Source: Trueperaceae bacterium
GTDB lineage: Bacteria; Deinococcota; Deinococci; Deinococcales; Trueperaceae
Reading direction: 5' to 3'
Assembly: GCA_040905465.1 (NCBI GenBank)
Contig: JBBDRK010000026.1
Coordinates: forward strand, 1 to 45,290
DNA: 45,290 nucleotides
The notes under the pieces are model-generated. The model ran no database searches, had not been told where the DNA came from, and was given only the letters and a program-made list of their open reading frames with translations. The position numbers and the translations under genes are program-made. Numbering within the stretch: the first letter of the stretch is position 1; every line of letters begins with the position of its first letter. Shown here piece by piece: positions 13,111-35,961 of this stretch.

Positions 13111-13211
13111 ATCGGATCCTTTCTACTGCGTGGACGTGATCGGATGGGTAACCACCTGCCCATCCGCTAGGAGTCTCGATCCACGAAGCGAACCGGGGCC
13201 ACTTCGACACC

Positions 13212-15121: not shown

Positions 15122-15131
15122 GGTTTCCTTT

Positions 15132-16079: not shown

Positions 16080-16086
16080 CGGCTCG

Positions 16087-16977: not shown

Positions 16978-16993
16978 TCCCTAAAGGTGAGGT

Positions 16994-17020
16994 TGTGCGG
17001 GGGCAAGGAGCCCCCGCACA
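16994..17020. terminator. GC-rich stem-loop just 3' of the binding-protein gene (attenuating or mRNA-stabilising hairpin)
   Basis: TGTGCGGGGGC-aagga-GCCCCCGCACA, a perfect 11-bp stem. Confidence 0.6.
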
Positions 17021-17029
17021 CGGAGATCT

Positions 17030-18559: not shown

Positions 18560-18637
18560 GTAGTCCTCCTGAAATGAGACTCGCGGTGTCGGACTAACTG
18601 CCCAATTTCAACGTCGCATCGTTACCTCCAGGCTCCG

Positions 18638-19789: not shown

Positions 19790-20781
19790 GATGGAACCTC
19801 CCGCCCTTCGGGCGTTAGCAGCTCTACCGGAAGCACGATGTCGTCGTTCATCTGCTCGAAGGCCGGAGAGTCGATTTGTGTCATCAGCTGCGTCACTGCT
19901 GCGCGTCCTAACGCCTTGGAGTGTTGGCGAACTATCGTCAGCTCCGGGAAGATCTGGAGCCACTCTTCGTCGCCGGTCCCGACGAACTCGACTCGACAGC
20001 GTGCTTCGCTAATGGCGCGTATGCAGCCGAGAGTGATTGCCAGGGTGGAGCCGATCATTGCTGTTGGTGGCGTCGGGAGGGTCAGTAACTGGCGCGCCGC
20101 TTGATAAGCCCCGTCGATCCCGAGGCGAGCAAACGCTTCCAGCTCCTGGCTGACAGCTACACCAGCGCTCGCCAGCGCCGCATGCAGTGCCTTCTGCTGT
20201 TCCATTCCGGGAGCGGCGTAAGGGGGACCGAAGACAGTTCCGATTCGGGTGTGACCCTGTTCCAAGAGATATTCGGCAGCCCTGCGCGTTCCTCCTGAGT
20301 AGTCGTGTTTTACCAACACCCCTCGCACGCCGGGCGGGCGTTGATTTATGAACACGATCGGAATCCTTGCACTCCAGATCGTCTCATAGAGGCGCGGGGT
20401 TTCCAGGACGGGTGCGGTGATGATGCCGGCTACCTGTTGGCTCAGATATTCAACCAGGTAATCGCGCTCTGTCTCAGGCGTTCCGTCCGAGTTGCCGAGT
20501 ATCACCTGATATCCGCGCTCACGGGCTACGGCTTCTACTCCTTGGACGATGGTGCTGAAGGTCGGATTGCTGATGTCGCGAAGGCAGAGTCCAAGCACGC
20601 TTCGCTTGCCGAGTCGCAAGGCTTGAGCAAGTGTGTTCTTGTGATAACCGACGCGCTCCGCCGCATCCAGTACCCGCGCCTTGGTGCGCTCGGCAACATG
20701 TGGTCTCTGATTGAACACGTTGGAAACGGTTCCTTCTGAGACTCCGGCTTCCCGGGCAACGTCTCGGATAGTCGGCATCAC
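19786..20781 (-). CDS. LacI-family transcriptional regulator
   Basis: HTH TIRDVAREAGVSEGTVSNVFN, hinge AQALR, periplasmic-binding-like core. Confidence 0.93.
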   Translation of the reverse strand: MMPTIRDVAREAGVSEGTVSNVFNQRPHVAERTKARVLDAAERVGYHKNTLAQALRLGKRSVLGLCLRDISNPTFSTIVQGVEAVARERGYQVILGNSDGTPETERDYLVEYLSQQVAGIITAPVLETPRLYETIWSARIPIVFINQRPPGVRGVLVKHDYSGGTRRAAEYLLEQGHTRIGTVFGPPYAAPGMEQQKALHAALASAGVAVSQELEAFARLGIDGAYQAARQLLTLPTPPTAMIGSTLAITLGCIRAISEARCRVEFVGTGDEEWLQIFPELTIVRQHSKALGRAAVTQLMTQIDSPAFEQMNDDIVLPVELLTPEGREVPS

Positions 20782-20934: not shown

Positions 20935-22614
20935 CTACTCCAGGCTTTCAACCGGTACTGGTCGAGTCGGCCAGGCGGATAGCCTCTCATCCCCCAAGTG
21001 CACCTCTATGAGCGAAGGTCCGTTTCGTGAAAGAGCTTCACCGAATGCTGAGTGGAAATCAGCGTTCTCGGCAACGCGGGTGCTCGGAATACCGTAGGCG
21101 TTGGCGATCCCAGTGAATGAAGGGTTGCAAAGATCGGTTCCGATCCGTCGGCCCGGGTACCGTTTTTCCTGGTGCACCCGAATGGTCCCGTGGAGATCGT
21201 TGACGAAGACGATAGTCACTATTTTCATGTCGTGCTTCCGGACAGTGGACAACTCGTTCATGGTCATCGCGAAGCCGCCGTCGCCAGCAAAGGCGAAGAC
21301 GGCGCGGAGCGGCTCTGCGCAACTGACGCCGATCGCGGCAGGAAGCGCATACCCCATGGCTCCCGATATCGGTCCAAAATGCGTCAGGGGAGAGGTAAAC
21401 GGGTAGTACCTGGAGATCCAGCCGGAGAAGTTTCCGGCGTCGCTTACGATAGCCGAGTCTTCAGGAGCAATCTCCTTCACCGACGCCAAGAGTGCCGAGA
21501 TACTCATCCTGCCGGGCCCGCTGGCCGGTCGGCTCTCGAAAGTAGTCAGCTTTCGGTAGAAAGCCCGGTACTCCTTCACTCTTGCTTGCCGCCTGGACTG
21601 GCTGCGGGGCACGGTTTGCGAATTCTTGAGCTCCGCAAGGCAATCCTGGAGGAAGGATCTGGTGTCCGCGACTATGGCAAGGCTGGGGCTTCCCCATGAG
21701 CCCGACGATTCCTGAGAGGCCGTAACGTGAATGAGCTGAGTGTTCGGTTTCGGATACCGGTATTGCGAGGTCGTCATCTGCGTGAACTGCGCCCCCAGGC
21801 CCAAAACCAGATCCGCGTCGGCGAGGGGCGCCAATGCTTCCTCGGGGGCGGCCAGGCCGAGATTCCCGACATAGTTGCCGTGATCGTTCGGAAAAGCGTC
21901 GAAGCGCCTGAAGGCGGTCATTACCGGGATAGCCAGCGCCTCTGCGAACTCTGTCAGGAGGGGGGTAGCGCCACTTGTCAGGACTTCCCGGCCGGCGATG
22001 AGCACCGGCGCCTTTGCTGTCAGCAGGAGCCGCAGCGCATCTCCGACGGACCGGGCATCGGGTCTGGGACTCCGCAGTCGAACACTGGCTAGAGCGTTTG
22101 CTGGCGTGGTCTCGGTCAGTATGTCCTCTGGCAGGCTTACAACTACCGGCCCTGGCCTCTCACTGGTGGCGACGCGGAACGCTTGCTGCAGCAACTCCGG
22201 AATGCGAGCTGTCTGGGGTATCTCGATCGCCCACTTCACGAGAGGGGAGAAGAAGGAAACGAAATCCACCTCCTGAAAGGCTCGGCGATGTCGGAACCCG
22301 GTCGGAACCTGGCCAACCAGGGCGACGAGAGGGGTCGAGTCCTGCTGTGCGGTATGCAGGGCTATGGACAGGTTGGTTGCTCCGGGACCTCGAGTAACTA
22401 TGCAGACTCCCGGTTCCCCGGATGCCTTGGCGTATCCTTCGGCAGCAAATCCCGCTCCTTCTTCGTGGCGCGTCGATATCAACTCGATACGCTCAGGAAC
22501 GTCATACAAAGCATCCAGAACGGGGAGGAAGCTCTCGCCCGGAACCGTGAAGAGCTTGGAGACCCCTTCGGCGAGAAGTGAGTCGACTACTAGCTGGCCA
22601 CCATGTTTGCGCAC
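20935..22614 (-). CDS. Thiamine pyrophosphate-dependent enzyme (acetolactate synthase large subunit-like)
   Basis: Motifs VPGESFL, RHEEGA, TRGPGATN, FQEVD, GAMGY and the TPP motif GDGGF...N. Confidence 0.9.
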   Translation of the reverse strand: MRKHGGQLVVDSLLAEGVSKLFTVPGESFLPVLDALYDVPERIELISTRHEEGAGFAAEGYAKASGEPGVCIVTRGPGATNLSIALHTAQQDSTPLVALVGQVPTGFRHRRAFQEVDFVSFFSPLVKWAIEIPQTARIPELLQQAFRVATSERPGPVVVSLPEDILTETTPANALASVRLRSPRPDARSVGDALRLLLTAKAPVLIAGREVLTSGATPLLTEFAEALAIPVMTAFRRFDAFPNDHGNYVGNLGLAAPEEALAPLADADLVLGLGAQFTQMTTSQYRYPKPNTQLIHVTASQESSGSWGSPSLAIVADTRSFLQDCLAELKNSQTVPRSQSRRQARVKEYRAFYRKLTTFESRPASGPGRMSISALLASVKEIAPEDSAIVSDAGNFSGWISRYYPFTSPLTHFGPISGAMGYALPAAIGVSCAEPLRAVFAFAGDGGFAMTMNELSTVRKHDMKIVTIVFVNDLHGTIRVHQEKRYPGRRIGTDLCNPSFTGIANAYGIPSTRVAENADFHSAFGEALSRNGPSLIEVHLGDERLSAWPTRPVPVESLE

Positions 22615-24038: not shown

Positions 24039-24839
24039 TTACACGCTGTCGTCGCTTCGCGCGCGCTGCTGAAAGTGTCGGTAACGGCGTACCGGCTGGG
24101 CCCGGTAGGCTGCCGTGAGTTCGACGAGGCGCTCAACGGCTTTGTCGAAGATCTGGCTGCCTTTCTCGGCGCTGGCGACCATGGCATTTCCCATGACCCC
24201 ATGCGGTGTCTCACGTTGACGCTCCGGAAACCTCACCATGGCCTCGAACGCCGCGCCGACGGAGGACTCCCACTCCTCAGAAACCGCTTTCTCGAAGTCC
24301 ACGAGTTCGGGCCTGAGGTGGAGCTGGTACGACGTCTCCCATTCGCCCGCATGGCCTATCGAGGTGTCCGCCGCCCCCAAGTCTCGCAGCTCGTTGGCAA
24401 CAAGGTCCCAGTGGCTGAGCGCCAGTACGTAGATATCGTGCTCCGCCAGGGCGGCGGCGGCAGATTTGAGGGGGTTGTGATTGCCGCCGTGCCCGTTCAG
24501 GAGGACTATGCGCTCGAAGCCGTTATCGTGAACCGAACGAGCAACGTCGCGCACGAGGGCCAGGAAGGTGTCGAGCTGCAGGGTGATCGTGCCGACGAAT
24601 CCCCGGTTGTAGTGAGTGAAGCCGAACGGAATCGGCTGCCCCACTACTATGGCCCCCTCTGCGCGCAAGGCGCTCTCCTGTGCGATGGCGGTGGGTATGC
24701 TTAGGTCGACATCCACGGGACAGTGTGGTCCGTGCTGTTCGATGCTGCCCACGGGAACGACGACCACGCTTTCACGGTCGCGCGCCTCCTCCAGATCTTG
24801 TCGGCGCATCTCCGGCCAGTAGTGGCGGTTACGGATCAT
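24039..24839 (-). CDS. Creatininase-family amidohydrolase
   Basis: Motifs PVGSIEQHGPH, NGHGGN and HAGEWETS. ATG 24839 follows GGAGG. Confidence 0.9.
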   Translation of the reverse strand: MIRNRHYWPEMRRQDLEEARDRESVVVVPVGSIEQHGPHCPVDVDLSIPTAIAQESALRAEGAIVVGQPIPFGFTHYNRGFVGTITLQLDTFLALVRDVARSVHDNGFERIVLLNGHGGNHNPLKSAAAALAEHDIYVLALSHWDLVANELRDLGAADTSIGHAGEWETSYQLHLRPELVDFEKAVSEEWESSVGAAFEAMVRFPERQRETPHGVMGNAMVASAEKGSQIFDKAVERLVELTAAYRAQPVRRYRHFQQRARSDDSV

Positions 24840-25054
24840 TTGACCTCCAAGAAATGCCACCATACCGGATTCCTGGACTGCAGCCAGAGCGCGGTGACTA
24901 CTGCCGCGGCGACCGATGCGGCGAGGAGTCAATTTAGAGTGTCACGGCCCAGACAACGATCCGGGTCGATCGGCACGGCTGTGCGATGATGGGGTATCGG
25001 AACCGGTAACGTGCGCGGCAACGCCACACTTCATTCAGATGAACAGGAAAATCG

Positions 25055-26275
25055 ATGACGATATACGACCGCTTCGGCATCAAGACGCTCATCAACGCAG
25101 CCGGCCCCAAGACGCGTCTCGGCGGCATACGCATGGCGCCGGAGGTGCTTCGGGCGATGGAGGAGGCTGCGGACTCCTCGGTTGACATGGCGTATCTGCA
25201 AGCTGCCGCTGGCCGGGTCATCGCAGCCCATACGGGGGCAGAAGCGGGTTACGTGACGAGCGGGGCGGCGGCTGGGCTAACGCTGGGGGCGGCGGCCTGC
25301 ATAACCGGCCTGGACGCAGCTATTATCGACCGCTTGCCGTTCACCGACGGAGTGCCGAACGAGATCGTCATACCTCGGTCGCATCGCAACTCATACGACC
25401 ACGCCTGGCGAGCAGCGGGGGCTCGGCTGGTGGAGGTCGGGCTCGACGATCGCACGGCAGGAAGCGGCGTAAGGTCGCTGGATCCGTGGGAGCTGGAGGC
25501 CGCCATCAGCGAGCGTACGGTGGCGGTAGCGTACGTGGCCAATCGCCGCGACGGCCCGCCGCTGCGAGAGATCGCGGCAGTTGCGCATAACTACGGCCTT
25601 CCGGTACTAGTGGATGCGGCCGCGCAACTGCCGCCGGTGGAGAACCTCCGGGCGTTCATCGATGCCGGTGCTGATCTGGTGTCCTTCAGCGGCGGAAAAG
25701 CCATCGGGGGGCCTCAGGGCACCGGTGTCCTGTGCGGGCGCCGCGACCTCATCCAGGCGGCACTGCTCAATCACCTCGATATGGACATGTACGCAGCGCA
25801 CTGGTCCCCTCCTCCCGACCTGTTTCCCGGTGTCAAGACGCTCCACCTGCCCCGTCACGGCATCGGCCGTGGTTTCAAGGTCAGCAAGGAGAACGTGATC
25901 GGGCTGTTGGTGGCTCTGCAGCGCTTCGTCGATGGCGCCTGGCGTGAGGATCTCAACGCCAGGCAGGAGATGGTGCGCGAACTGCTGGAGGCAGCCTCCG
26001 GTCACGGTTTGGTGGCTCCGGAACTGAACACGGTAAACGGGGAACCGCGACTCGCATTGCGTTTCGAACCCACCGAGTTGGCCGCCCAGGTCCTGCACCG
26101 GCTGGAGGAGGGTGAGCCGGCCATCGCCGTCGATCCAAACGATCTCGCCGGCGGCTGCCTCGTGGTGAACCCTGTCGGACTCGACAGGGAGGAAGGGCGG
26201 ATCGTTGCAGCTCGGCTCAGCGACGTCTTAACGTCACTGTCGGAAGGCATGCCCGCGAAACGTGCGATGCTCTGA
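25055..26275 (+). CDS. SelA-like PLP-dependent enzyme (DgaE / D-glucosaminate-6-phosphate ammonia-lyase-like)
   Basis: Motifs LINAAG..TRLGG, VTSGAAAG, VDAAAQ, FSGGKAIGGPQ (PLP Lys) and IGRGFKVSKE; lacks the N-terminal tRNA-binding domain of true SelA. Confidence 0.85.
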   Translation: MTIYDRFGIKTLINAAGPKTRLGGIRMAPEVLRAMEEAADSSVDMAYLQAAAGRVIAAHTGAEAGYVTSGAAAGLTLGAAACITGLDAAIIDRLPFTDGVPNEIVIPRSHRNSYDHAWRAAGARLVEVGLDDRTAGSGVRSLDPWELEAAISERTVAVAYVANRRDGPPLREIAAVAHNYGLPVLVDAAAQLPPVENLRAFIDAGADLVSFSGGKAIGGPQGTGVLCGRRDLIQAALLNHLDMDMYAAHWSPPPDLFPGVKTLHLPRHGIGRGFKVSKENVIGLLVALQRFVDGAWREDLNARQEMVRELLEAASGHGLVAPELNTVNGEPRLALRFEPTELAAQVLHRLEEGEPAIAVDPNDLAGGCLVVNPVGLDREEGRIVAARLSDVLTSLSEGMPAKRAML

Positions 26276-26288
26276 GATGGAGGATCCT

Positions 26289-26657
26289 ATGGAGAAGAAG
26301 GCATTCGGCAAGGCAACGGCACCTCTGGCGCCAGCGCTCAAGGTAGGGAAGACGATCTTCATATCCGGCCAGGTGCCGCGGACCCCGGAGGGCAAGGTCG
26401 TCGAGGGTGACGTGCGGGCCCAGACTGAACAGGTCCTTGACAACATCGAGACACTGCTGAAGGAAGCGGGCGCGTCGATGGCCGACGTCGTCAAAACTAC
26501 GGTGATCCTGCCACAGGTAAAGCGGGACTTCGCCGCGATGAACGAAGTCTACGGGAGCCGCTTCCCGGATCCCAAGCCTTCCCGAACGACCTTGGGAGCA
26601 GAGCTGGCGATCGATATCCTGGTCGAGATTGAAGCCGTCGCGATGGTGGACGGCTGA
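26289..26657 (+). CDS. ridA: RidA/YjgF family imine/enamine deaminase
   Basis: Motifs ISGQVP, MNEVY, PSRT (catalytic Arg) and VEIEAVA. ATG 26289 follows GGAGG. Confidence 0.9.
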   Translation: MEKKAFGKATAPLAPALKVGKTIFISGQVPRTPEGKVVEGDVRAQTEQVLDNIETLLKEAGASMADVVKTTVILPQVKRDFAAMNEVYGSRFPDPKPSRTTLGAELAIDILVEIEAVAMVDG

Positions 26658-26672
26658 CGAAGTCGAAAACGC

Positions 26673-26714
26673 GTCGCCAGGTCTGGCACCGTTTACGGTG
26701 GAAGACCTGGCGAC
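26673..26714. terminator. Long hairpin between convergent genes (putative bidirectional terminator)
   Basis: GTCGCCAGGTCT-gg-CACCG-ttta-CGGTG-ga-AGACCTGGCGAC. Confidence 0.6.
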
Positions 26715-26764
26715 CTATCACGACCATGGCAGATCGTGCCCGGAATCCGGACCCTGTCCGAGCG

Positions 26765-27886
26765 CTAGCGGGTCTTGCCTCGCGCGGCCACGGGAATGGC
26801 CGCCTCGAATATCCCGCCGCGGTGCGCATAAACCTCGTCGTGCAGGTTGGTTACCGGACAAACGTGATTCGGCAGGACCCTGACACGCTCACCGATAGCG
26901 GGTCTGCGCTCGCAAGCTGAGAAGTCCACTAAGCCGTGTTCTTCCGACAGTTCCGTGATTACCGCCTCCGGGTACTCGAGGATGAGGCCGTAGCCACGCC
27001 CGAACTCGTCGGAGATCGCGTCGCTCGTCAGCGTCTTGGAGCCGGCGTCGATCACTCCGCGCCGGCTCGTCGGCATGCTGACTACGGTGGCATGCACGTG
27101 TAGCGCGCACTCGTCCAGGGTCGCGACTCCGACCCCCACGCTCTTCCGGTCGTGATAGATGTAGGTTCCTGCCCGGTACTCGGTCAGTCCTTCTATCTCA
27201 TGACTCCGCCACGCGTTGGGCGTTCCTCCGCCTGATACTACTGTCACGGCCAGGTCGTTCGCACTGAAGAGAGCCCGGGCTCGCGCGATCCACTCGGCCG
27301 ATGCCGGCGTACTGGGATACGTGAGGAGCCCGAGAAACTCGATGTTGTCGGCCTCGTCGGCCTTTCTCGCCAGCGTCAGGGCGGCTTGCGGCTCGAGTAC
27401 CCCTTGCCGTTGCTTGCCGGACTCGAACTCTACGAGTACGCCGATGGGCGAAACGGCATGTGCGCCTGCCTCGATGATCGTGTCCAGGGCCACCTCGTTG
27501 TCCACCGCCACCCGGATTTTCGCCAGTCTCGTCAGCGCGGCAAGCCGTTCAGCCTTCGCGCTGCCGATCAGGTTGTAGGTGATCAGGATGTCGTCGATGC
27601 CCGCCTCGGCCATCACCTCGGCCTCGCCGATCTTTTGGGTGGTGATGCCCACGGCTCCCGCCTCGACCTGCTTGTGCGCGAGAACGGGCAGTTTGTGCGT
27701 CTTGATATGGGGGCGGCATTGCAGCCCGTGGCTATCGCAATACGCTTGCAGCTTCGCGATATTGTGCTCTACCACATCCAGGTCGATGACGACGGCCGGC
27801 GTGTCGAGGTCTTCGATCCGGCCGCCCCGTGCAGGCGCAGGGTCGTGAGCGGACCTCATGACGAAGCCTTCTGTTTGATATGCCAT
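26765..27886 (-). CDS. D-threonine aldolase / D-serine dehydratase (D-TA, fold-type III PLP) family enzyme
   Basis: Motifs RPHIKTHK (PLP Lys), SGGGTP, RAGTYIY, DAGSKTL, SEEHG and PNHVCP. ATG 27886 follows AGGAGGAGG. Confidence 0.9.
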   Translation of the reverse strand: MAYQTEGFVMRSAHDPAPARGGRIEDLDTPAVVIDLDVVEHNIAKLQAYCDSHGLQCRPHIKTHKLPVLAHKQVEAGAVGITTQKIGEAEVMAEAGIDDILITYNLIGSAKAERLAALTRLAKIRVAVDNEVALDTIIEAGAHAVSPIGVLVEFESGKQRQGVLEPQAALTLARKADEADNIEFLGLLTYPSTPASAEWIARARALFSANDLAVTVVSGGGTPNAWRSHEIEGLTEYRAGTYIYHDRKSVGVGVATLDECALHVHATVVSMPTSRRGVIDAGSKTLTSDAISDEFGRGYGLILEYPEAVITELSEEHGLVDFSACERRPAIGERVRVLPNHVCPVTNLHDEVYAHRGGIFEAAIPVAARGKTR

Positions 27887-27934
27887 TTTCCTCCTCCTAT
27901 CCGGTCGGCCGTTTCGCAATTCCATGCGGACCGC

Positions 27935-29071
27935 CTAGCGCCGGTGGTCGACAACCATTTTGCCACCCTTGATGACAGCGGCGGCGCTCAGGTTCTGTTC
28001 GGCGTCCCAAGTCCTGCCCATGCTATCGCTATACCTGAAGTTGCCACTCTCCAGGGAGAGGAGCGCGATATCCGCATGCGCCCCGGCCCGAAGGTGGCCG
28101 ATATCCCGGGGAAGGTTCAGGCTCCGGACGCAGGCGATGGTAGAACGCTCGATAACCTCCGACACTGGCATGCCGAGCGAGAGGAACTTGGCGAGGGTAG
28201 TCACCTGATCGAATACCGGTCCGTCTATGTTGAGTGCATGTACGTCGCTGCTGACGGTATGGGGCTTGAGTCCCTCGCGCAGGGCCTTCTCCGCCACCTC
28301 CAGCGAGAAGCTGCCCATGCCATGCCCCACGTCCAGCAGCACACCCCGATCCAAGGCGTCGAGCATCGCCCTGCTCACCTCGCCTTTCTCGTCGAGCACA
28401 CTCCTGGTCTGCTCTTCGAAGCAGTGGGTCAGGATGTCTCCGGGGCGCAAGACGGCCAACAACTCCTCCACCGGCATGGCCAGGTCGCTGATGTGAATCA
28501 TCAAAGGCAGCGCCGTGGCCTCCGCAGCCTCGAGGGCGAGCCGCAACGCCTCGGTCGCGTGGTCTCCCACCTGTTTTTTCCCCAGGCGTATCTTCATTCC
28601 CACTATGGTGTCTCGGTTGGCGTTTACCACCGAAACTGCGTTCTCGACGTCGGCGTGGCGCAGGTCGAGGAGTTCACCGTTCCTGCCGAGTATGCCGTGG
28701 TCGGCTATGTGTAGGAGGGCGAATATCCGGGTCGTCACGGAATCGATGACGTAGCGGCGAAAGCCTGGGAACGTCAGGGCTCCGGCTGAACCGGTGTCGA
28801 CCGCGGTCGTCACACCCCGGTCCAGGCAGTAGCTGTCGGCGTTCACCCCGTACACCCCAACCCCCTCGTACACGTGAACGTGCAGGTCGATCAGGCCGGG
28901 CGTGACCAGGAACCCTGACGCCTCGACCACCCGCCGGGATTCGGAACGGTCGATGTCGCGCTCAACAGCGACTACGCGCCCCTCTCGCACCCCCACGTCG
29001 CGCTCGTCGCCTGCCAGACCTTGGGTGCTGTCGTATACCTGGCCCCCCTTTATCAGCATGTCGTATTTCAT
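27935..29071 (-). CDS. Amidohydrolase/deacetylase (dihydroorotase-like, EF_0837/AHA_3915-type)
   Basis: Motifs PGLIDLHVH, DTGSAG, GMKIR, MIHI, THCF, DVGHG and SSDVH. ATG 29071 follows GAGGAG. Confidence 0.88.
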   Translation of the reverse strand: MKYDMLIKGGQVYDSTQGLAGDERDVGVREGRVVAVERDIDRSESRRVVEASGFLVTPGLIDLHVHVYEGVGVYGVNADSYCLDRGVTTAVDTGSAGALTFPGFRRYVIDSVTTRIFALLHIADHGILGRNGELLDLRHADVENAVSVVNANRDTIVGMKIRLGKKQVGDHATEALRLALEAAEATALPLMIHISDLAMPVEELLAVLRPGDILTHCFEEQTRSVLDEKGEVSRAMLDALDRGVLLDVGHGMGSFSLEVAEKALREGLKPHTVSSDVHALNIDGPVFDQVTTLAKFLSLGMPVSEVIERSTIACVRSLNLPRDIGHLRAGAHADIALLSLESGNFRYSDSMGRTWDAEQNLSAAAVIKGGKMVVDHRR

Positions 29072-29185
29072 GGAATCAGCTCCTCGTTGCCCAGGGAAGT
29101 ACACTCGCAGCCCGCCATCGCCGTACGCCGGCGCAGCAGAAACTGTAGCGGTGGGTAGGTGGCGCGGGCTTGCTGGCCCGCCAGC

Positions 29186-30100
29186 TCAGAGATCACTGAA
29201 TCGCGGGTCCAAAAAGTCTCGCAAGCCGTCGCCGATCGAGTTCAAAGCCAGCACAGTTACCGCGATGGCGAGCCCGGGGGGAATCATCATCCACGGTGCC
29301 TGCGTCATGTAGAGCCGCGCTTCGCTGAGCATGCTCCCCCAGGAAGGCACCGAGGGGGGCACACCGACCCCGAGGAAGCTCAACGCTGCTTCCGCTTGAA
29401 CCGCATAGGCGAAGATAAAAGTGGCCTGTACGATGATCGGGGACAGGCAGTTCGGCAGGATGTGCCGCCCGATAATCCGAGCATTCCTGCTTCCCAGGGC
29501 GCCCGCTGCCTCTACGTAGGGCGTCTGCTTCACTCCCAGGACCGCACTGCGGACGATGCGGGCCGTGCGCGGAGCGTAGACGGCGCTGAGCGCGATAATG
29601 ACGTTGATCAGCGTCGGTCCGAGCGCCGCCATCAGCGCGACGGCCAACAAGATGACTGGAAACGCCATCAGTCCGTCCATGATTCTCATCAGGAGCGTGT
29701 CTGCCCGAGGATAGTAACCGGCGAGGGTACCGATTATGACTCCCGCGACCGTCGACACCACCACGGACGCAAATCCCGCGATCAAGGAGATTCGGGCACC
29801 GTGTATCAGTCGGCTCAGAACGTCCCGGCCGAGATTGTCGGTGCCGAGCCAGAACTCGCTGGAAGGGGAGTGGAGCCGCGAACGGACGTTCATTCCGGTA
29901 GGACTGAACGGAGCGAGGACATCCGCGAACACGGCTACCAGGACCAGAATGAGGAACACTACGGCCCCATAGAGCACGATGCGTCGGCGGAAAAGCCTCT
30001 TCACGCTGGCGAGGACTCGAAATACTTCGTTGCGCCTGCCTGGGGGAGCCGGCTTCAGCCGATCACCCTGGGACGATCCGCCGTGTGTTGCCTGCCTCAC
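29186..30100 (-). CDS. Dpp/Opp-family ABC permease (DppC-like)
   Basis: Motifs WLGTDNLGRD, YVEAAGALG, HILPN, EAALSFLG and GDGLRDFLDP. Confidence 0.92.
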   Translation of the reverse strand: MRQATHGGSSQGDRLKPAPPGRRNEVFRVLASVKRLFRRRIVLYGAVVFLILVLVAVFADVLAPFSPTGMNVRSRLHSPSSEFWLGTDNLGRDVLSRLIHGARISLIAGFASVVVSTVAGVIIGTLAGYYPRADTLLMRIMDGLMAFPVILLAVALMAALGPTLINVIIALSAVYAPRTARIVRSAVLGVKQTPYVEAAGALGSRNARIIGRHILPNCLSPIIVQATFIFAYAVQAEAALSFLGVGVPPSVPSWGSMLSEARLYMTQAPWMMIPPGLAIAVTVLALNSIGDGLRDFLDPRFSDL

Positions 30101-30185
30101 TCGAGGACGCTCCTGCCTGGGGAGCGAGACGCTGCCGGTCGGTATTCGCGAGCCGAGAAAAAAGTCTTGATCTCCATTCCTCGCC

Positions 30186-31133
30186 TCAGTACCTGATCCT
30201 GGGGTCGGCCACGGTGTACAGCAGGTCGACGAGCAGGTTGACGACTACGTAGACCAGGGCGGTCAGTAGAACGATGCCTTGAATGACGGGATAGTCCCTT
30301 CGCGATATCGAAGAGATCACCAGGCGACCCAGGCCGGGAATTGCGAACACGGTTTCCACGACTACAGCCCCGCTGAGGAGTGCGGCGAGAACCAGGCCGA
30401 TAACCGTCAGTACCGGAACCAGCGCGTTCGTAAGCACGTGGCGCACGACGACGATCTGGCGGCTTGCCCCCTTCGCGACGGCGGTCCTGACGAAGTCCTG
30501 TTGAAAGACGTCGAGCATGGTCGAGCGAGTGATACGACTGATAATGGCTGCCTGTGACAAGCCCAGCGCAACCGCCGGCAGGACAAGATGCCACAGGCTG
30601 CGCCACACTCCCTTTTCAGCGATAGGCGGATAACCGGTTGCCGGGAACCAGCCGAACTCGACTGCGAAAACCAGAATGAAGATGAGTCCCAGCCAGAAAT
30701 TGGGAATGGAGACGCCTACCAGCGCAAGCGTAGAAATGAACTGATCCGCCCATCGGTTGTGATGCATGGCCGAGAGGATTCCGGTGACGACCCCGAACAC
30801 GACGGCGATAATAAGAGAAAACAGGGTCAGGACGATGGTCGGCTCGACCCGTTCCAGGAGTGCTGTCAGCACGGAACGGTCCAGTGCGAGCGATTCACCC
30901 AAATCACCCCGCAGCAGGCCACCGACAAAACTGAGATATTGGATGTAGATGGGCCGCTCGAGCCCCAGTGACTGGCGGAGCCGAGTGACGTCTTCTTCGG
31001 AAGCGATGTCGCCGAGCATCAGTCGCGCCGGATCTCCGGGGGTCAAGTGGAGAATGCCGAAGACCACGACGGTCACGACCAAGAGAACGGGAACGATCTC
31101 GATAACGCGTCTAAGTAAATATGCCGCCGTCAT
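30186..31133 (-). CDS. Dpp/Opp-family ABC permease (DppB-like)
   Basis: Motifs PGDPA, GDLGES, DFVRTAVAKG, RDYPVIQG and DPRIRY. Confidence 0.92.
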   Translation of the reverse strand: MTAAYLLRRVIEIVPVLLVVTVVVFGILHLTPGDPARLMLGDIASEEDVTRLRQSLGLERPIYIQYLSFVGGLLRGDLGESLALDRSVLTALLERVEPTIVLTLFSLIIAVVFGVVTGILSAMHHNRWADQFISTLALVGVSIPNFWLGLIFILVFAVEFGWFPATGYPPIAEKGVWRSLWHLVLPAVALGLSQAAIISRITRSTMLDVFQQDFVRTAVAKGASRQIVVVRHVLTNALVPVLTVIGLVLAALLSGAVVVETVFAIPGLGRLVISSISRRDYPVIQGIVLLTALVYVVVNLLVDLLYTVADPRIRY

Positions 31134-31188
31134 CTATGCTCCTCGACAGGTCGCCCAGAGGGCGCTGCGCTTCTCCACGAACGCAGAA

Positions 31189-31229
31189 TCGAGCATGCCC
31201 GGCGCCCAGGTGGGCGCCGGGTTACTCGA
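31189..31229. terminator. Stem-loop 3' of the binding-protein gene
   Basis: TCGAG-catg-CCCGGCGCCC-aggt-GGGCGCCGGG-tta-CTCGA. Confidence 0.55.
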
Positions 31230-31264
31230 CAAATCAGCCGTTCACCATACGCGTCCCGTCACGC

Positions 31265-32839
31265 CTACTGTTCCTTCCAGCTGTTCCAGTAGGACGGCAT
31301 TCCCTGGGTGGCAGCCTCGCCCGGCTGAAAGTCGGGGCTCTTGATGTCCAACCCGTACAACTCTCCCAGCATCATGGACGGCAGATACTCGTAGTTGTAC
31401 GCCAACAGGTCGTCCCAGGCCGCCTGCCTCTCTTCGAGGCTGGTAGCGGTATGCACTCGGTCCACCAGTTCGCTGCGGCGCTCTTCGTCCCACCAACCGG
31501 GATAGGTCGAGGAGAGCGTATTGACCAACACGGGATCGGGAGCGAAGCCGTGGTGAGTAACGAATACGTCCCAGGCACCCTCCTGCGAGCGGATGTCGAG
31601 GAGCGTTCCCCACTCGACGGCCATGAGCTCGATATTGAACCCGGCCGCTTCCAGTTGCTGCTCGGCCGCGAGGCTCATCAGGTAGTGCTGGTTGTAGTCG
31701 GGACTGACGAGCCAACGGATCGGCTGCCCGTCATAGCCCGCTTCCTCTGCCAACTGGCGGGCCCGCTCAGGGTCGGCCTGGTTGTATTGATCTGCTCCGG
31801 CCTCCGTCTTGAACGGCGTGTCTCCTACCATGTAGTTGTGTTCGAGATTCCAGAACTCCTCGGGGCCTGCGGCGGCGATGAGCAACTCCTCCATGTCGAG
31901 CGCCGCGTTGACCGCCTGACGCAACTTCTGATTCGTCATGAGCCCTTGGCGCTTGTTGAAGAACGCCACTCCCCATATGAAGGGCTTTCGAATCACGGTA
32001 TCGACACTGGTATCAGCTTCCAGGGCGGCGTAGGCGTCGGGAGCTATCTGCCAGCCGTAGTCGTAGTCGCCGGTCTGGGTTCCAGCGATCCTGGTGGCCG
32101 TTTCCGGCACAACGGCGAACCGTATGGTGTCGAGGTACGCCACGCGTTCCCCGGAGTACCCGTCACTGGCGGTATCCAACGCCTGATAGCCGTCGAATCT
32201 CTTGACTTCGACGTGACGATCGGGAAGCCATTGGACGAACTCGTAAGGTCCGGTGCCGATGTGGTCTCTGATCGGATCGGACCCGTACTTTTCGATGATC
32301 TCGCTCGGATAGATTCCAGCACCGCCGCTATGGTGCGCAAGAAGCGAAAGGAGCGGCGCGAACGGAGCGTTAAGGCTCAGTTCCACCGTATGATCGTCGA
32401 CCGCCTCGAGACTGGTGATGTAGTCTCTGACGTTGCTCCCCCGCGGTGAGACCTCGGTCCAACGGCGGAGTGAAGCGACGACATCGTCAGCCGTCAAATC
32501 GGTGCCGTCATGGAACTTCACTCCCTCGCGGAGCACGAAGGTATAGTTCATCCCGTCTTCGCTGGTCTTTATATCCTTGGCGAGGTGCGGCTGAGGGCTC
32601 CAATTGCTGTCGAAAGCGACTAGTGTCTCCAACCAATGCGAGGAGATCGAGCCTGCAACCTCGGCCGTCGTTATATGCATGTCCAACGTTTGCGCTTCAC
32701 CAGGCAAGGCGATGGTGGCTACCCCGCCATGTTGAGCCGAATCGCTCTGCTGCGCTAGGGCGCAGCCGAGAAGCAGGTACCCGGCGACGAGTATCAGGCT
32801 GAGGAGACGTGTGCTACACCGGTTCAGTTGTAGGAACAT
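31265..32839 (-). CDS. ABC transporter substrate-binding protein, family 5
   Basis: Signal peptide (ALA-QQ); motifs LREGVKFHDG, IGTGPY, LRQAVNAALD and DPERARQL. Start refined to ATG 32839. Confidence 0.92.
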   Translation of the reverse strand: MFLQLNRCSTRLLSLILVAGYLLLGCALAQQSDSAQHGGVATIALPGEAQTLDMHITTAEVAGSISSHWLETLVAFDSNWSPQPHLAKDIKTSEDGMNYTFVLREGVKFHDGTDLTADDVVASLRRWTEVSPRGSNVRDYITSLEAVDDHTVELSLNAPFAPLLSLLAHHSGGAGIYPSEIIEKYGSDPIRDHIGTGPYEFVQWLPDRHVEVKRFDGYQALDTASDGYSGERVAYLDTIRFAVVPETATRIAGTQTGDYDYGWQIAPDAYAALEADTSVDTVIRKPFIWGVAFFNKRQGLMTNQKLRQAVNAALDMEELLIAAAGPEEFWNLEHNYMVGDTPFKTEAGADQYNQADPERARQLAEEAGYDGQPIRWLVSPDYNQHYLMSLAAEQQLEAAGFNIELMAVEWGTLLDIRSQEGAWDVFVTHHGFAPDPVLVNTLSSTYPGWWDEERRSELVDRVHTATSLEERQAAWDDLLAYNYEYLPSMMLGELYGLDIKSPDFQPGEAATQGMPSYWNSWKEQ

Positions 32840-33066
32840 AGTACGACCTTTCTCTTCTGGACATTCGTCATGCAATCAGTCGTTGTCGGACGGGCATCTC
32901 CAGTCGAACTCCACAGTCTCGGCGCCGAAACATCACCTCCCTATAGGCCATCGGCGGAACCGCAAATGGCTACATCGGGGATTCGAAGAGTTGGGATCAT
33001 GGGTTCGGAATACCGTCCCAAGAGCTGTCGGGCGCAAAAGAGTCACGCGCAGTCGTGTCCTTAAAG

Positions 33067-34167
33067 TTATCCACGGGGAAGGTGGCTGCACAGGAAGGTA
33101 AGCCAGTTCCCGTGCATGACCGCGGCTATGTCGCCTTCGCCGAAACCGCGGCTCGAGAGCATCTTCGGGATCTTTTGCAGATCGGCAATCGTATCCAAGT
33201 CTCGAGGGGTCTGCTCGGTGCCGAAACCGCCATCGAGGTCGGTGCCGATGGCTGCGTGCCGAGTGTCGCCGCTGAGTTCGCAGATGTGGGCGATGTGGTC
33301 GACAAGAGCATCGAGGCTCACCACATTCGGCGACGTTTCCCCTCGTACCCAGCCGGGGTAGAGCATCCAGGCGTCGAGAGCGCATCCAACGACTCCGCCT
33401 CGCTCGATTATCGCTTTCAGTTGTTCGTCGGAAAATTGGCGCTGGCCCGGGACCAGTTCTCGGCAGTTGTTGTGGCTCGCCAAGACCGGACCATCCCATT
33501 GATCCATCGCCTGCCAGAAGCTCTCATCGGCCAGATGAGTTACGTCGAGGATCATGCCGAGCCGCCTCATTTCGCGGAGGAGAGGTTTGGCTGCTTCCTT
33601 GAGTCCTCCTTCGCTTCCGGTGCCGTGGGCGTAGAGGCTCTCCTGATAGTGAGTCATGCCGATTACTCGAAGACCCTCGTTCCACCAGGATTGCACCTGT
33701 TCTGGCGATGAAATCGAGTCCGCTCCTTCCATGGTCACGATCAGCCCGGGCGGAGGAACGCGATCGGTAGCTGCCGTCGGAACTTGCGCTTGGCGACTCT
33801 CCCACTCGCCCCACTGTTGCCAGTGCGTGTCGAGTTCTTGCCGGTTTCCGATCAGCCTCAACAGGCCTTGGGACTGCAGAAAGCGGTAGTAGGCGAGCTG
33901 CCCCTGGGCCATCCCGTAGGCAATCCCTGCGCTTTCGTATCTCGGCAGGTTCGGGGAGGGGGAGCCGCCGGTGCGTGCAAGCACGGTGCCGAGGGCCAAG
34001 GCTATCCGGCCGCGTTGAAGCTCCGGGACCGAAACGGTATTTGCTCCGCGACCCTTGCCCGCCATCCCCTTCTCGCGCCGGCGGATTTCGGCCACCGGGA
34101 GGGTTAGATCGCGGTTCCACATGAGCGCGTTCATGCCAAGGTCCAGGTGAGAATCGATTATGAGCAC
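33067..34167 (-). CDS. Membrane/renal dipeptidase family (peptidase M19)
   Basis: Motifs IIDSHLD, TMEGAD, DVTHL, ASHNN and IGTDLDGG. Confidence 0.9.
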   Translation of the reverse strand: MLIIDSHLDLGMNALMWNRDLTLPVAEIRRREKGMAGKGRGANTVSVPELQRGRIALALGTVLARTGGSPSPNLPRYESAGIAYGMAQGQLAYYRFLQSQGLLRLIGNRQELDTHWQQWGEWESRQAQVPTAATDRVPPPGLIVTMEGADSISSPEQVQSWWNEGLRVIGMTHYQESLYAHGTGSEGGLKEAAKPLLREMRRLGMILDVTHLADESFWQAMDQWDGPVLASHNNCRELVPGQRQFSDEQLKAIIERGGVVGCALDAWMLYPGWVRGETSPNVVSLDALVDHIAHICELSGDTRHAAIGTDLDGGFGTEQTPRDLDTIADLQKIPKMLSSRGFGEGDIAAVMHGNWLTFLCSHLPRG

Positions 34168-34199
34168 GGATGATCCAATCTGCTCACCAGGATCGGCGT

Positions 34200-35123
34200 T
34201 TACGCTACCGCTCGCTCGCGCTCGGCCAGGTCGGTGGCAGCTGCCGCAACGCGATCTCGGTCGGTTTCATCCAGGTTGCTCGACAGCGGAAGGATCGGGC
34301 CCATATCGGCAATATCTGCCAGCGATACCGCATCGTGCAGAACACGGATCGGGTTGATGGAATCCCGGAGGTCCTCGAGAGGAAGGAATCTTCCACGAAG
34401 AGACGTGGCTTCTTCGTAGTCCTGGCGTTTGAGTGCGCGGAGAAGCTGCGTGGATTGACGCGGCGCCACGCAAACGGATCCGGATGTGAAAGAGCTGAGC
34501 CCGAAATCGCGCAAATGCACTATTGCCGGCCGCTCTCCGATCCCGCTTATGAGATAACGGCGGTCGACCGTGTCGCAGAGCTCGCGGAGGTAGTCGTCTA
34601 TCAAAGGGTCCTCCCGCACCACGGCGTACTTCACTGCGCACACCAGGCCGTCATCGACCAAGCGCCGGACACCCTCGGCCGTCAGGTAACCTTCGAACTT
34701 CAGATATATGATGATCGGCTTACCGAACCTTTCGGCGAAGCGGCGCAGGCCCGTTTCCACTCCGGCGGGGGTGGCGGCTGTGCTCATCGGCAGCACCATG
34801 GCGGTTGGAAAGTCGAAGTCCGTCAGCACCTCCGCCTGATCCATGAACATTCCGTAGGAGGGGCCCACCGCCGGGATCATCCAGGAATCCTTGGCGGCGA
34901 TTTCAGTCAGGGACTGCAAAATTGCGGCGTACTCGTTGAGGCCGATGTTGTAGAAGTTGGCGTTGCCGCCGTAGAGGATGGTCGAAACGCCGCCTGTCTC
35001 CAGGTAATGGACCAACGCCCGGTTGGCCTCCGTGTTCAGGCTGTAGTCGTCGCGTCTTGCCAAGGGCGGGACGGCAATTACCGAGGCATCGAGGTCTTCA
35101 AAAGTCACCGCTGTCGTTTTCAT
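34200..35123 (-). CDS. Dihydrodipicolinate synthase / N-acetylneuraminate lyase (class I aldolase) family protein
   Basis: Motifs AVPPL, YGGNANFY, IIIYLK, AVKYA (Schiff-base Lys) and SGIGE. ATG 35123 follows AAGGGG. Confidence 0.82.
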   Translation of the reverse strand: MKTTAVTFEDLDASVIAVPPLARRDDYSLNTEANRALVHYLETGGVSTILYGGNANFYNIGLNEYAAILQSLTEIAAKDSWMIPAVGPSYGMFMDQAEVLTDFDFPTAMVLPMSTAATPAGVETGLRRFAERFGKPIIIYLKFEGYLTAEGVRRLVDDGLVCAVKYAVVREDPLIDDYLRELCDTVDRRYLISGIGERPAIVHLRDFGLSSFTSGSVCVAPRQSTQLLRALKRQDYEEATSLRGRFLPLEDLRDSINPIRVLHDAVSLADIADMGPILPLSSNLDETDRDRVAAAATDLAERERAVA

Positions 35124-35191
35124 ATTGAGCCCCTTCAATTCGATCCTGGCTCCGCGTCGGTCGAAGCCTCGAAGCGTGCATCCGTTTATTT

Positions 35192-35212
35192 TTGTATACT
35201 GATGGTATACCA
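35192..35212. promoter_or_regulatory. Tandem GntR/FadR-type operator
   Basis: TTGTATACTG followed by the perfect palindrome TGGTATACCA (35203-35212), in the divergent region between the DHDPS-family gene and gntR. Confidence 0.7.
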
Positions 35213-35298
35213 CATTATCGATTCGGCGGTCAACGACGGTTCGAGGCCGGAAGCCGGCCGGCTGCAGGAGACGATTTCGGGTTGAAGGGACGAGTCAA

Positions 35299-35961
35299 CT
35301 GAACAAGGAAGAAGCATTCAGCGCGATAGTCGATGACATCCTCTCGAACAGACTGCGGCCGGGTCAACCGCTGATCGAGCGTGTGCTTGCCGAGAGGTTT
35401 CGATTGAGTCGTACGCCGATCCGGGAGATTCTGCGTCGCCTCGAGCGGGATCGCCTCGTCGACGTTTATCCCAACAAGGGCGTGTTCGTGCGCCGGCAAT
35501 CACCGAAGGACATTCAAGACCTGTTCCAGTTGCGTATTGCCCTGGAGCCGGTAGCCGCCTCGCTGGCAGCGAGGAATCGTCCCGATAACGAGTTGGCAGA
35601 ACTGCAGGAGCGCTTCTCCGTTCAGACAAAACTGGTCGCGGATGATGCCAAGGGACTGGTCCTTCTCGGTGAATCGCTTCACGACTCGATAGTGCGCTGG
35701 ACGGGTAACACCTTGCTTATCGAGGTTTACCAGTTACTGAGACAGCAGACGAAGCTGGTCCGGAGCATGTTGCAGAAGCGGGTGGATCTGGAGTCTCAAT
35801 CTTTTCAGGAGCATGTTTCCGTACTCGGCGCCATACATGCGAAAGACGCCCGTGCGGCCGATGCCCTGATGCGCGAGCACCTGCAGCGCGCCAACCGGGA
35901 TATCGCCGAGTGGCTGAGCTCGGGGGATGCCTGGTACGGACAGAACGAGAAAGCGGAGTAG
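35299..35961 (+). CDS. GntR-family (FadR/FCD) transcriptional regulator; start codon uncertain
   Basis: wHTH EEAFSAIVDDILSNRLRPGQPLIERVLAERFRLSRTPIRE..PNKGVFV and FCD motifs LFQLRIALE, LHDSI and EHVSVL. Homology extends upstream of the ORF-track start at 35383. CTG 35299 is my proposed start. Confidence 0.85.
   Translation: MNKEEAFSAIVDDILSNRLRPGQPLIERVLAERFRLSRTPIREILRRLERDRLVDVYPNKGVFVRRQSPKDIQDLFQLRIALEPVAASLAARNRPDNELAELQERFSVQTKLVADDAKGLVLLGESLHDSIVRWTGNTLLIEVYQLLRQQTKLVRSMLQKRVDLESQSFQEHVSVLGAIHAKDARAADALMREHLQRANRDIAEWLSSGDAWYGQNEKAE

Follow-up and report, generated by a model that had tools for sequence, protein, structure and literature searches.

The window analysed here, a stretch of 45,290 nucleotides, is contig C26 (JBBDRK010000026.1) of an 81-contig, 3.5-Mb genome (G000) from a bacterium of the family Trueperaceae, phylum Deinococcota; its proteins find their closest named relatives in Trueperaceae metagenome-assembled genomes. 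At 24039-35961 it carries an island of genes that may encode the regulated catabolism of N-acylated amino-sugar acids. Gene families were assigned with Pfam and NCBIfam models, using curated bit-score cut-offs; the genome is 95% complete, a limit that attaches to every genome-wide negative given below. The minus strand holds a row that encodes a family-5 solute-binding lipoprotein (31265-32839; SBP_bac_5, PF00496, 236 bits), a DppB-type permease (30186-31133) and a DppC-type permease (29186-30100; both PF00528, with OppC_N / BPD_transp_1_N given for the pair), an amidohydrolase of the cog3964/PRK09237 type (27935-29104; NF006689) and a fold-type-III enzyme dependent on pyridoxal 5'-phosphate (PLP), of the D-threonine aldolase (D-TA)/DSD1 family (26765-27925; PF01168, Ala_racemase_N, and PF14031, D-ser_dehydrat). 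The row converges on a plus-strand pair comprising a SelA/Aminotran_5-like PLP enzyme related to DgaE (25055-26275) and a RidA-family protein (26262-26657; Ribonuc_L-PSP, PF01042, 104 bits). Divergent from this pair, on the minus strand, lies a creatininase-family gene (24039-24932; PF02633, 219 bits).

An earlier note on this DNA had described nine genes, and each was recovered by the Pfam and NCBIfam models at the position and in the family it had been given; the layout, with an ATP-binding cassette (ABC)/amidohydrolase/D-TA row running into the DgaE-like and ridA genes and a divergent creatininase gene, was likewise confirmed. So was the statement that the segment 24039-32839 contains no gene for a phosphotransferase system (PTS), a kinase or DgaF: we found no PTS, kinase or aldolase gene there. 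The unit is nevertheless larger than first described. Upstream in the minus-strand row are genes for an M19 renal-dipeptidase-like metallohydrolase (33067-34167; PF01244, 165 bits) and, first in the row, a DHDPS/NAL-family class I aldolase-like enzyme (34200-35108; weak Pfam match, E 1e-4), and divergent from these on the plus strand is a GntR/FCD regulator (35299-35961; PF07729 and partial PF00392). The earlier description had left out the M19 gene, the regulator and the extended gene set.

One way to ask whether such a grouping reflects more than chance is to follow its members through related genomes. A query with the amidohydrolase against 301 genomes of the phylum (threshold E<=1e-30) found the cog3964 type in 23, all within the window's own family; outside the window's genome this amounted to 27 places, for 22 of which (19, and 3 later) sequence context was fetched. 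The DgaE-like protein, run against 128 genomes of the family, was found at 20 distinct places in 17 genomes. Fifteen of the 20 have a cog3964 gene no more than 5.1 kb away, adjacent in 9 cases; RidA/YjgF neighbours are present at 8 of the 20. The five places lacking a near cog3964 gene are contig C49 of the window's own genome, G201 at 2.84 Mb, G249:C70 (a contig of 15.8 kb), G001 (where the DgaE-like gene is in two pieces) and G178.

The fullest counterparts lie in two places. In G236 (locus L096), a member of another genus, a creatininase gene and a gene for a KDPG/KDPGal (2-keto-3-deoxy-6-phosphogluconate/galactonate)-aldolase-family enzyme (Eda) are divergent from a row of genes for the DgaE-like enzyme, the family-5 solute-binding protein (SBP5), DppB, DppC, cog3964 and DSD1, the row being convergent with RidA and 2-keto-3-deoxy-galactonokinase (DgoK); nine shared proteins are 58-81% identical to those of the window, and Eda 38%. 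On metagenome contig L129 the main row runs DgaE-like, SBP5, DppB, DppC, cog3964, DSD1, then RidA and a PfkB kinase, and genes for GntR, an aldehyde dehydrogenase (ALDH), MR/MLE, a DHDPS-like enzyme, YjgF, creatininase and Eda are divergent from it. A looser version in G021 (L097) contains M19, SBP5, DppBC, a DMFA2_C protein, a DHDPS-like enzyme, creatininase, the DgaE-like enzyme, a second creatininase, cog3964 and GntR. As regards the survey of synteny proposed by the earlier note, the set co-occurs elsewhere, in G236 and L129 closely and in G021 more loosely. Because it recurs in this way, the grouping is more than chance within this bacterial family. A plasmid megablast with 24039-35300 as query gave no match. 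At L096:1605-1868, in G236, all that is left of a DHDPS-like gene beside the creatininase gene is its final ~60 codons, which looks like the remnant of an order similar to that of G021 and L129.

These data bear directly on the possibility that there is no single pathway here, and that independent small operons (ABC/deacylase/dehydratase; DgaE-like/RidA; creatininase; M19/DHDPS-like) are chance neighbours in a genome well stocked with such genes. The island comprises at least three transcription units, its candidate operator (below) occurs once only, and SBP5 genes number more than 20 in the genome, where each hydrolase also has many paralogs. Contig L127, only 12.6 kb long, is also consistent with separate units: it carries creatininase, MR/MLE, a thiamine-pyrophosphate (TPP) enzyme, ALDH, DHDPS-like, M19, 2-HADH, DgaE-like and an RraA-like aldolase, so that M19, DHDPS-like, creatininase and DgaE-like genes are together there while the ABC, cog3964 and DSD1 genes are absent. 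For six genes of this contig, namely creatininase, TPP enzyme, ALDH, DHDPS-like, M19 and DgaE-like, the top or near-top match in the genome falls within the window, where the six are spread over 24 kb. Yet the operon that holds SBP5, DppBC, cog3964 and DSD1 begins, in both G236 and L129, with the DgaE-like gene, and the closeness of cog3964 at three quarters of the family's DgaE-like places is difficult to square with accident. We consider chance assembly distinctly improbable.

The window's own genome contains a paralogous arrangement. On contig C49 (L013, 9000-28900) one row encodes IclR, an SBP1 ABC importer, Eda, PfkB and a DgaE-like protein 63% identical to that of the window; a convergent row encodes IclR, YjgF, an SBP5 ABC importer, a D-aminoacylase-like enzyme, a threonine-synthase-like PALP protein, a DSD1-like enzyme, 2-HADH and creatininase. 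The cog3964/DgaE-like pair also occurs within another recurring cluster, at L098, L102, L105 and L120 (G003, G240, G173 and G307). It is fullest at L098, with DeoR, a BadF-type kinase, an SBP1 ABC importer, SIS_2, a short NAD-epimerase-like protein, RidA, a DSD1-like enzyme, a conserved ~190-aa protein without Pfam match and a beta-lactamase-family protein; the others hold subsets.

For comparison beyond the family we took 80 loci from many phyla (L016-L095) that encode DgaE-like proteins 47-65% identical to that of the window, and called their neighbours by phmmer with proteins of the window's genome as queries (E<=1e-5), a procedure by which remote family members may be missed. At 17 of the 80 a gene for serine hydroxymethyltransferase lies directly upstream on the same strand, with an FGGY-family kinase gene upstream on the opposite strand; further loci have genes for glucokinase, glucose-6-phosphate dehydrogenase, Edd, ROK proteins or sugar ABC importers. 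A gene context common to the whole DgaE-like family is rejected on these loci, cog3964 being called with these queries at only 2 of them.

The spacers of the island offer some information on its transcription. The convergent spacer is 107 nt long and contains a hairpin (26673-26714; 12+5 bp, -49.1 kcal/mol, z -4.56) as stable as none of 200 shuffled sequences; it is probably a two-way terminator, which a consensus terminator scan missed because it has no T run. Consensus scans of the window found nothing above shuffled sequence: promoter-like sites numbered 1, where shuffles averaged 2.6, and terminator-like sites 7, where shuffles gave 7.3. Between the starts of the DHDPS-like and regulator genes lies a divergent spacer of 190 bp, which holds the window's only perfect TGGTATACCA palindrome (35203-35212), a candidate operator of the GntR/FadR type if, as we assume, the FadR-type consensus applies. 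A search for a shared operator returned 14 copies of TGGTATACCA at 2 mismatches where 5.5 were expected, none of them in the other promoter regions. The regulator itself poses a small annotation problem: an open reading frame from GTG 35383 includes PF07729 and part of PF00392, and no ATG, GTG or TTG start keeps the winged helix, whereas a CTG at 35299, after a purine-rich stretch, gives a complete protein of 220 aa with the full winged helix.

Two of the enzymes are best understood from their active-site motifs. The fold-type-III enzyme has its best PDB matches in D-threonine aldolases and D-threo-3-hydroxyaspartate dehydratase, with more overall similarity to the aldolases (E 5e-46) than to dehydratases (2e-36) and with low identity to any solved member; it shares with D-threo-3-hydroxyaspartate dehydratase (3wqc) and with D-serine dehydratase DSD1 (3anu) the two-domain fold-III architecture and the PLP-lysine motif, here RPHIKTHK. 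Its NHVC motif, retained in all five aligned Trueperaceae homologs, aligns with NHAC of D-threo-3-hydroxyaspartate dehydratase and not with SHVD or GHCD of the aldolases. We take a His/Cys pair to mark dehydratases and a His/Asp pair aldolases, these residues presumably being metal ligands. The His-x-Asp aldolase motif is absent, and the BhcC model NF045642 scores 190 bits against a cut-off of 690. The enzyme is probably of the dehydratase type and, by family, similar to OngC, the deaminase of the ong pathway discussed below; the His-x-Cys motif is that expected of the fold-III deaminase which the earlier note had proposed.

The amidohydrolase passes NF006689/PRK09237 (399 bits, cut-off 371) and falls short of TIGR03583, the EF_0837 model (285, cut-off 432). 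Its PDB matches, at E 1e-56 to 1e-60, are 8wzy, 8je0 ('Amidase'), 2ics and 2ogj, and it contains the motifs HVHV, MKIRL, MIHISD, THCFE and SSDVH (HxH, K, H, H, D), which we take to be the metal ligands of the superfamily. Translation is likely to start at ATG 29071. D-aminoacylases match over the first ~100 residues only (36 bits). We presume the protein to be an N-deacylase. Two solved cog3964 proteins, Atu3266 (2ogj) and EF_0837 (2ics), are both matched at E 1e-56, and the pairing with a SelA-related PLP enzyme that TIGRFAM notes for the EF_0837/selA_rel neighbourhood recurs in the window's family; in enterococci that neighbourhood is linked to PTS/PRD genes. The first of the two, 2ogj, is described as a deacetylase and not a dihydroorotase in PMC4987910, which cites Ornelas 2013.

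RidA falls slightly under the cut-off of TIGR00004 (100.6 bits against 106.25), although its Pfam match is clear. It has the PSR motif, presumably the site of the catalytic arginine, with Arg at the expected position, and is 75-81% identical to the RidA proteins of L129 and G236. Its likely start, ATG 26277, lies one base past the stop codon of the DgaE-like gene, and we propose that the two genes are translationally coupled.

The DgaE-like protein itself requires closer scrutiny. It fails both models available for DgaE (NF047797, 184 bits against a cut-off of 600; TIGR01437, 171 against 385), and the alignment to the DgaE model is good only over its residues 2-237. The protein belongs to a ~400-aa 'type B' form without signal peptide, and its C-terminal domain is longer than that of DGL (7lc0), the solved DgaE enzyme, and diverged from it. 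Residue conservation was scored over 22 relatives. K215, which aligns with the lysine of the DGL SGAK motif, is invariant in all 22, and R229, which aligns with Arg-226 of DGL (alpha-carboxylate), is Arg in 16. The His-162/His-163 loop of DGL is deleted in the pairwise alignment and present in none of the 22. Asp and Val stand in place of R332 and R346, where no relative has Arg (from alignment only, in a diverged domain), and the equivalent of R301 is Arg in 8. In PMC9529869 the His-162/His-163 loop of DGL is called strictly conserved and given the role of C-3 proton donor, and Arg-301, 332 and 346 are placed at the 6-phosphate by manual docking. The claim of a DgaE/SelA-like enzyme thus stands as far as the SelA/DgaE-related fold type I is concerned, but the features specific to DgaE (model cut-offs, His-His loop, phosphate arginines) are wanting; judged on these features, we class the protein as a relative of DgaE and not as DgaE. 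It and DGL have the same fold, ~30% identity and a conserved PLP lysine and carboxylate Arg, and for both the expected substrate is a beta-hydroxy-alpha-amino sugar acid; the window enzyme differs in being coupled to RidA and in lacking an operon with mannose-family PTS and DgaF.

With two of the three phosphate arginines missing and no PTS found, an unphosphorylated substrate would fit. The search of the whole genome for PTS enzyme I (PF05524) and EIID (PF03613) found neither, which bears out the PTS-independence claimed by the earlier note; on this account the chemistry of the DgaE-like enzyme would be PTS-independent by necessity.

Three subtypes of DgaE-like protein occur in the family: the ~400-aa form (window, C49, G236, G021), a ~365-aa form, the one that cog3964 usually has directly beside it, and a DGL-like form with an SHH loop (G192, G178), found beside PfkB kinases. 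We entertained the idea that RidA substitutes for the missing His-163 proton donor; it is weakened because the SHH-bearing homologs of G192 and G178 likewise have RidA/YjgF neighbours.

Structure introduces a further alternative. An AlphaFold2 (AF2) model of the protein (pLDDT 89.7) superimposes on DGL 7lc0_A with TM 0.77/0.85 and on Cap15 (8t7j) with TM 0.79/0.87, at 30% identity in both cases, Cap15 being the best structural match; by phmmer the protein scores 133 bits to Cap15 and 140 to DGL. Cap15 is, by the title of its PDB entry, an oxygen- and PLP-dependent enzyme, and presumably one of nucleoside-antibiotic biosynthesis. The DgaE-like protein could then be a decarboxylating oxygenase that shortens a beta-hydroxy-alpha-amino (sugar) acid by one carbon and leaves a primary amide, to be hydrolysed by the creatininase, M19 or cog3964 enzyme. 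The absent His-His loop and the conservation of three amide hydrolases as neighbours would be in keeping with this. The gene is found in a catabolic context, though, and its coupling to RidA, together with the RidA/YjgF genes seen across the family, suits an enamine-releasing lyase better; the kinases and aldolases of 2-keto-3-deoxygluconate (KDG) type beside DgaE-like genes suit a 2-keto-3-deoxy product. We regard oxygenase activity as very improbable.

The importer and the remaining hydrolases are less distinctive. The solute-binding protein has a signal peptide with an LLLGC lipobox after ATG 32839, and is 78% identical to its counterpart in G236 and 71% to that of L129; among solved proteins it is closest to 8vdx (ligand not named), GsiB/YliB and two binders of opines, AgaA and AccA. 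The permeases are 75-79% identical to those of G236. The ABC importer of the earlier note is thus present as a binding protein and two Dpp permeases, but the operon contains no ATPase genes; four DppD/F-type pairs are encoded elsewhere in the genome, against its more than 20 SBP5 genes. The creatininase-family protein lies under every NCBIfam equivalog cut-off and matches PDB creatininases at E 3e-24; its gene probably starts at ATG 24863 or 24839, and orthologs of 58-60% identity adjoin DgaE-like genes in G236, G021, L127 and L129. The M19 protein matches PDB M19 dipeptidases at E 1e-16. DgaE-like genes have M19 homologs at their side in L127 (66% identical, tblastn) and L128, with scores of 511-567 bits; in 8 of the 80 distant loci the DgaE-like gene has one at a distance of 4-5 kb, scoring 390-453 bits. 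The DHDPS-family enzyme, which the earlier note had mentioned as nearby, is a real gene and belongs to a large and tight subfamily: 6717 relatives at E<=1e-5 (source name 'DHDPS family'), 58-74% identity in alignment, and invariant K160 and Y135, positions that align with the catalytic pair of the family. Its profile matches PDB entries 3d0c and 3e96, both uncharacterised 'DHDPS' entries, at E 1e-17, and YagE weakly.

What, then, might the island do? Amino-sugar acids are, chemically, beta-hydroxy-D-amino acids. What is reported above on the families, on the order of the genes, on the conserved set and on active-site motifs leads us to infer a substrate, an order of steps, a regulation and roles for the M19, creatininase and DHDPS-like enzymes, as follows. 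The lipoprotein and its two Dpp-type permeases would import the compound with ATPases encoded elsewhere, and the cog3964 amidohydrolase would take off the N-acyl group. The fold-III dehydratase, with its His/Cys metal site, would eliminate water and ammonia to give a 2-keto-3-deoxy-aldonate, RidA hydrolysing the freed enamine or imine. The DgaE-like enzyme would act as a second lyase for an unphosphorylated relative of the substrate, either another stereoisomer or the free amino-aldonate. The keto-deoxy acid could be cleaved by the DHDPS-family enzyme, or phosphorylated by DgoK or KdgK encoded elsewhere and then cleaved by Eda, and would in this way reach central metabolism. The M19 and creatininase-family enzymes might serve as further amide or ring hydrolases that broaden the range of conjugates, and the GntR/FCD protein may repress at least the DHDPS-M19 transcript, perhaps also the remainder of the minus-strand row, through the palindrome of the divergent spacer. 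We put at about an even chance the reading that the island is devoted to regulated catabolism of N-acylated 2-amino-2-deoxy-aldonic acids, such as N-acetyl-glucosaminate and N-acetyl-galactosaminate, or of very similar hydroxy-D-amino acids. Why two PLP enzymes should be kept is a matter for guesswork: they may handle different epimers, or free and N-acylated streams, a guess founded on the split of the C49 set into two operons, or one may carry out a Cap15-like oxidation.

The strongest pointer to sugar acids, as opposed to ordinary D-amino acids, is provided by the neighbours in G236, L129 and C49. In the related clusters a KDPG-type aldolase is accompanied by DgoK or by a PfkB of KDG-kinase-like type, which suggests a 2-keto-3-deoxy-hexonate product. 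The PfkB proteins encoded beside DgaE-like genes in C49, L129, G192 and G178 have the KDG/KDGal-kinase model as their best match (207-271 bits, under its cut-off of 440). In the window's genome the downstream enzymes are found elsewhere: C43 and C49 each carry PfkB and Eda, and at the edge of C64 a DgoK fragment lies with an MR/MLE dehydratase. The amino-sugar-acid pathway of the earlier note is partly supported, by the recurring gene set, the lack of PTS, the His-x-Cys motif and these kinase and aldolase neighbours; substrate specificity, by contrast, is not legible in sequence.

It is also conceivable that the island degrades D-amino-acid dipeptides and N-acyl-D-amino acids: the Dpp importer would bring in L-Xaa-D-Xaa or N-acyl-D-Ser, -D-Thr or -D-hydroxyaspartate, the M19, cog3964 and creatininase enzymes would free the D-amino acid, and the fold-III and DgaE-like enzymes would deaminate it, yielding pyruvate, 2-oxobutanoate or oxaloacetate, while RidA removed the enamines. 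M19, SBP_bac_5 and Dpp proteins do handle peptides; the nearest solved relatives of the fold-III enzyme act on D-Thr and D-hydroxyaspartate; and D-Ser and D-Thr are also substrates of OngC (PMC9537276). Paralogs of M19, creatininase and SBP5 are many in the genome, one group of them (on C31) lying with MR/MLE genes, and the D-aminoacylase-like enzyme of C49 is closest to N-acyl-D-glutamate deacylase. But this account leaves unexplained the KDPG-type aldolase that accompanies DgoK or PfkB in orthologous and paralogous clusters, the DHDPS-family enzyme, and the sugar-type SBP1 importers in operons with cog3964 and DgaE-like genes (G003, G240, G192 and G307). We judge it unlikely, while taking it seriously. 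The C31 region (12000-40000; L014, L015) is in its own right dense in amide hydrolases, with four M19, four Amidohydro_2, two MR/MLE, a creatininase and an SBP5 ABC importer, and its cog3964 paralog lies directly behind a GntR/FCD gene.

Several observations weigh against the assignment to amino-sugar acids. Ordinary D-amino acids or peptides are also among the substrates of every enzyme family of the island, and peptide handling is the classic role of M19 and of Dpp-type importers; the M19 gene, the regulator and the extended set fit dipeptides or D-amino acids about as well. A kinase is missing from the window cluster, whose nearest Eda belongs to another operon. Its deacylase is not of the OngB family, and even the D-aminoacylase-like paralog of C49 scores 225 bits with an N-acyl-D-glutamate deacylase against 175 with PpOngB (9kb1). 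The only characterised cog3964 member of which we are aware reportedly hydrolyses an ester, acetyl-mandelate. On its AF2 model the DgaE-like protein is structurally as close to oxygen-dependent Cap15 as to DgaE. Partners of the island are scarce at the 80 distant loci, by the queries used (cog3964 at 2, DSD1-like at 4, RidA/YjgF at 2, M19-like at 8). The TGGTATACCA palindrome has no copy before the DgaE-like/creatininase pair and so gives no support to one common regulon. No AA10 lytic polysaccharide monooxygenase (LPMO; PF03067), GH18 (PF00704) or GH20 (PF00728) was found in the genome, so that oxidised chitin would need to be scavenged as monomers. Finally, the complete ong pathway is reported to be almost confined to Gammaproteobacteria (PMC9537276).

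As to C49, the D-aminoacylase-like enzyme was considered as an ortholog of OngB, a proposal that its bit scores leave unsupported. The M19 enzyme and Dpp importer would fit dipeptides with a C-terminal D-residue; that the substrate is an aminoacyl-amino-aldonate is purely speculative.

To our knowledge, proven routes for such compounds number just two, one catabolic (ong) and one dependent on a PTS (dga). The catabolic route, described for N-acetyl-glucosaminate (GlcNAc1A) in Pseudoalteromonas prydzensis ACAM 620, comprises OngB, OngC, OngD, KdgK, OngIT and OngR: a D-aminoacylase-like deacetylase acts on N-acetyl-glucosaminate, a fold-III PLP enzyme, which also accepts D-Ser and D-Thr, then deaminates glucosaminate to KDG, a RidA-family protein is needed in vivo, and KDG is phosphorylated (PMC9537276). 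The island resembles it in the predicted N-deacylation and fold-III PLP deamination, in having a RidA-family gene in the cluster, and in a 2-keto-3-deoxy product destined for kinase and aldolase. The differences are considerable. The deacylase is of the cog3964/PRK09237 type where ong has the D-aminoacylase-like OngB; an SBP5 ABC importer stands in place of an SSS symporter, and a GntR/FCD regulator in place of RpiR. The window adds a DgaE-like PLP enzyme and M19, creatininase-family and DHDPS-family genes to the ong complement. It lacks the KDG kinase that ong has, DgoK or KDG-kinase-like PfkB being found instead in G236 and L129 and on C43, C49 and C64 of the genome, and its host has no detected LPMO, GH18 or GH20 front end of the kind associated with ong. 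The C49 double operon is more similar to ong than the window cluster is. The strings 'Truepera', 'Deinococc' and 'ABC transporter' were not found in the supplements of PMC9537276 that were searched. A kinase-plus-DgaE route is predicted for haloarchaea in a genome paper (PMC12343721). Our search of the literature found no described cog3964 deacylase or His-less DgaE relative in amino-sugar-acid catabolism, nor this gene set; the remark of the earlier note that the combination is not a described system holds for the literature searched.

Other parts of the window may be connected with the island. A TPP-dependent enzyme of the PRK08199 type (20935-22614, minus strand; NF006052, 594 bits, cut-off 539) has a 57% identical homolog on L127, beside creatininase, ALDH, DHDPS-like, M19 and DgaE-like genes. 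An atypical 527-aa aldehyde dehydrogenase (11527-13110, minus strand; PF00171, no NCBIfam cut-off reached) has its best match on that contig in a 48% identical homolog adjoining the DHDPS-like gene. As the L127 homologs match these window genes best, the TPP enzyme and ALDH may share a functional set with the island. The window's Eda gene (13212-13853, minus strand; PF01081; TIGR01182, 163 bits, cut-off 156) lies ~11 kb off in another operon, and because its product is only 38% identical to the cluster aldolases of G236 and L129 it is not their ortholog. The operon to which ALDH and Eda belong (11527-20781, minus strand) is a second SBP5 ABC operon without ATPase, encoding MR/MLE, SBP5, DppC, DppB, a sulfatase, the KDPG/KDPGal-type aldolase and the ALDH; a LacI-family gene overlaps the start of the MR/MLE open reading frame, and the operon as a whole resembles a pathway for a sulfated sugar or sugar acid. 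At 3421-11466 a ROK regulator, an SBP1 ABC importer, GH31 and GH15 make up an ordinary-looking cluster for alpha-glucoside utilisation.

A broader proposal may be advanced, tentatively and in the knowledge that it is somewhat unlikely as a whole. The His-less, ~400-aa clade of DgaE relatives, which numbers thousands of proteins in many phyla, may consist of ammonia-lyases for unphosphorylated amino-aldonates. In Trueperaceae, together with cog3964, M19-like and creatininase-family enzymes and a special DHDPS-family aldolase, it would form an undescribed and largely non-phosphorylative route for N-acyl- or aminoacyl-amino-sugar acids fed by a peptide-type ABC importer, in which both proven steps of ong have been replaced or doubled by unrelated enzymes.

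Oxidised amino sugars arise from oxidative attack on chitin and other amino-sugar polymers, or through periplasmic dehydrogenases. The island in this genome is real and conserved, and its enzymes differ from those of the proven ong pathway. Should amino-sugar acids prove to be what it degrades, the result would supply first functions for three large orphan groups, the cog3964 amidohydrolases, the His-less DgaE-like clade with its more than 7000 relatives and the tight DHDPS subfamily; it would present a clean case of non-orthologous replacement, and would extend a route to carbon and nitrogen to the Deinococcota and to scavengers that do not themselves degrade chitin.

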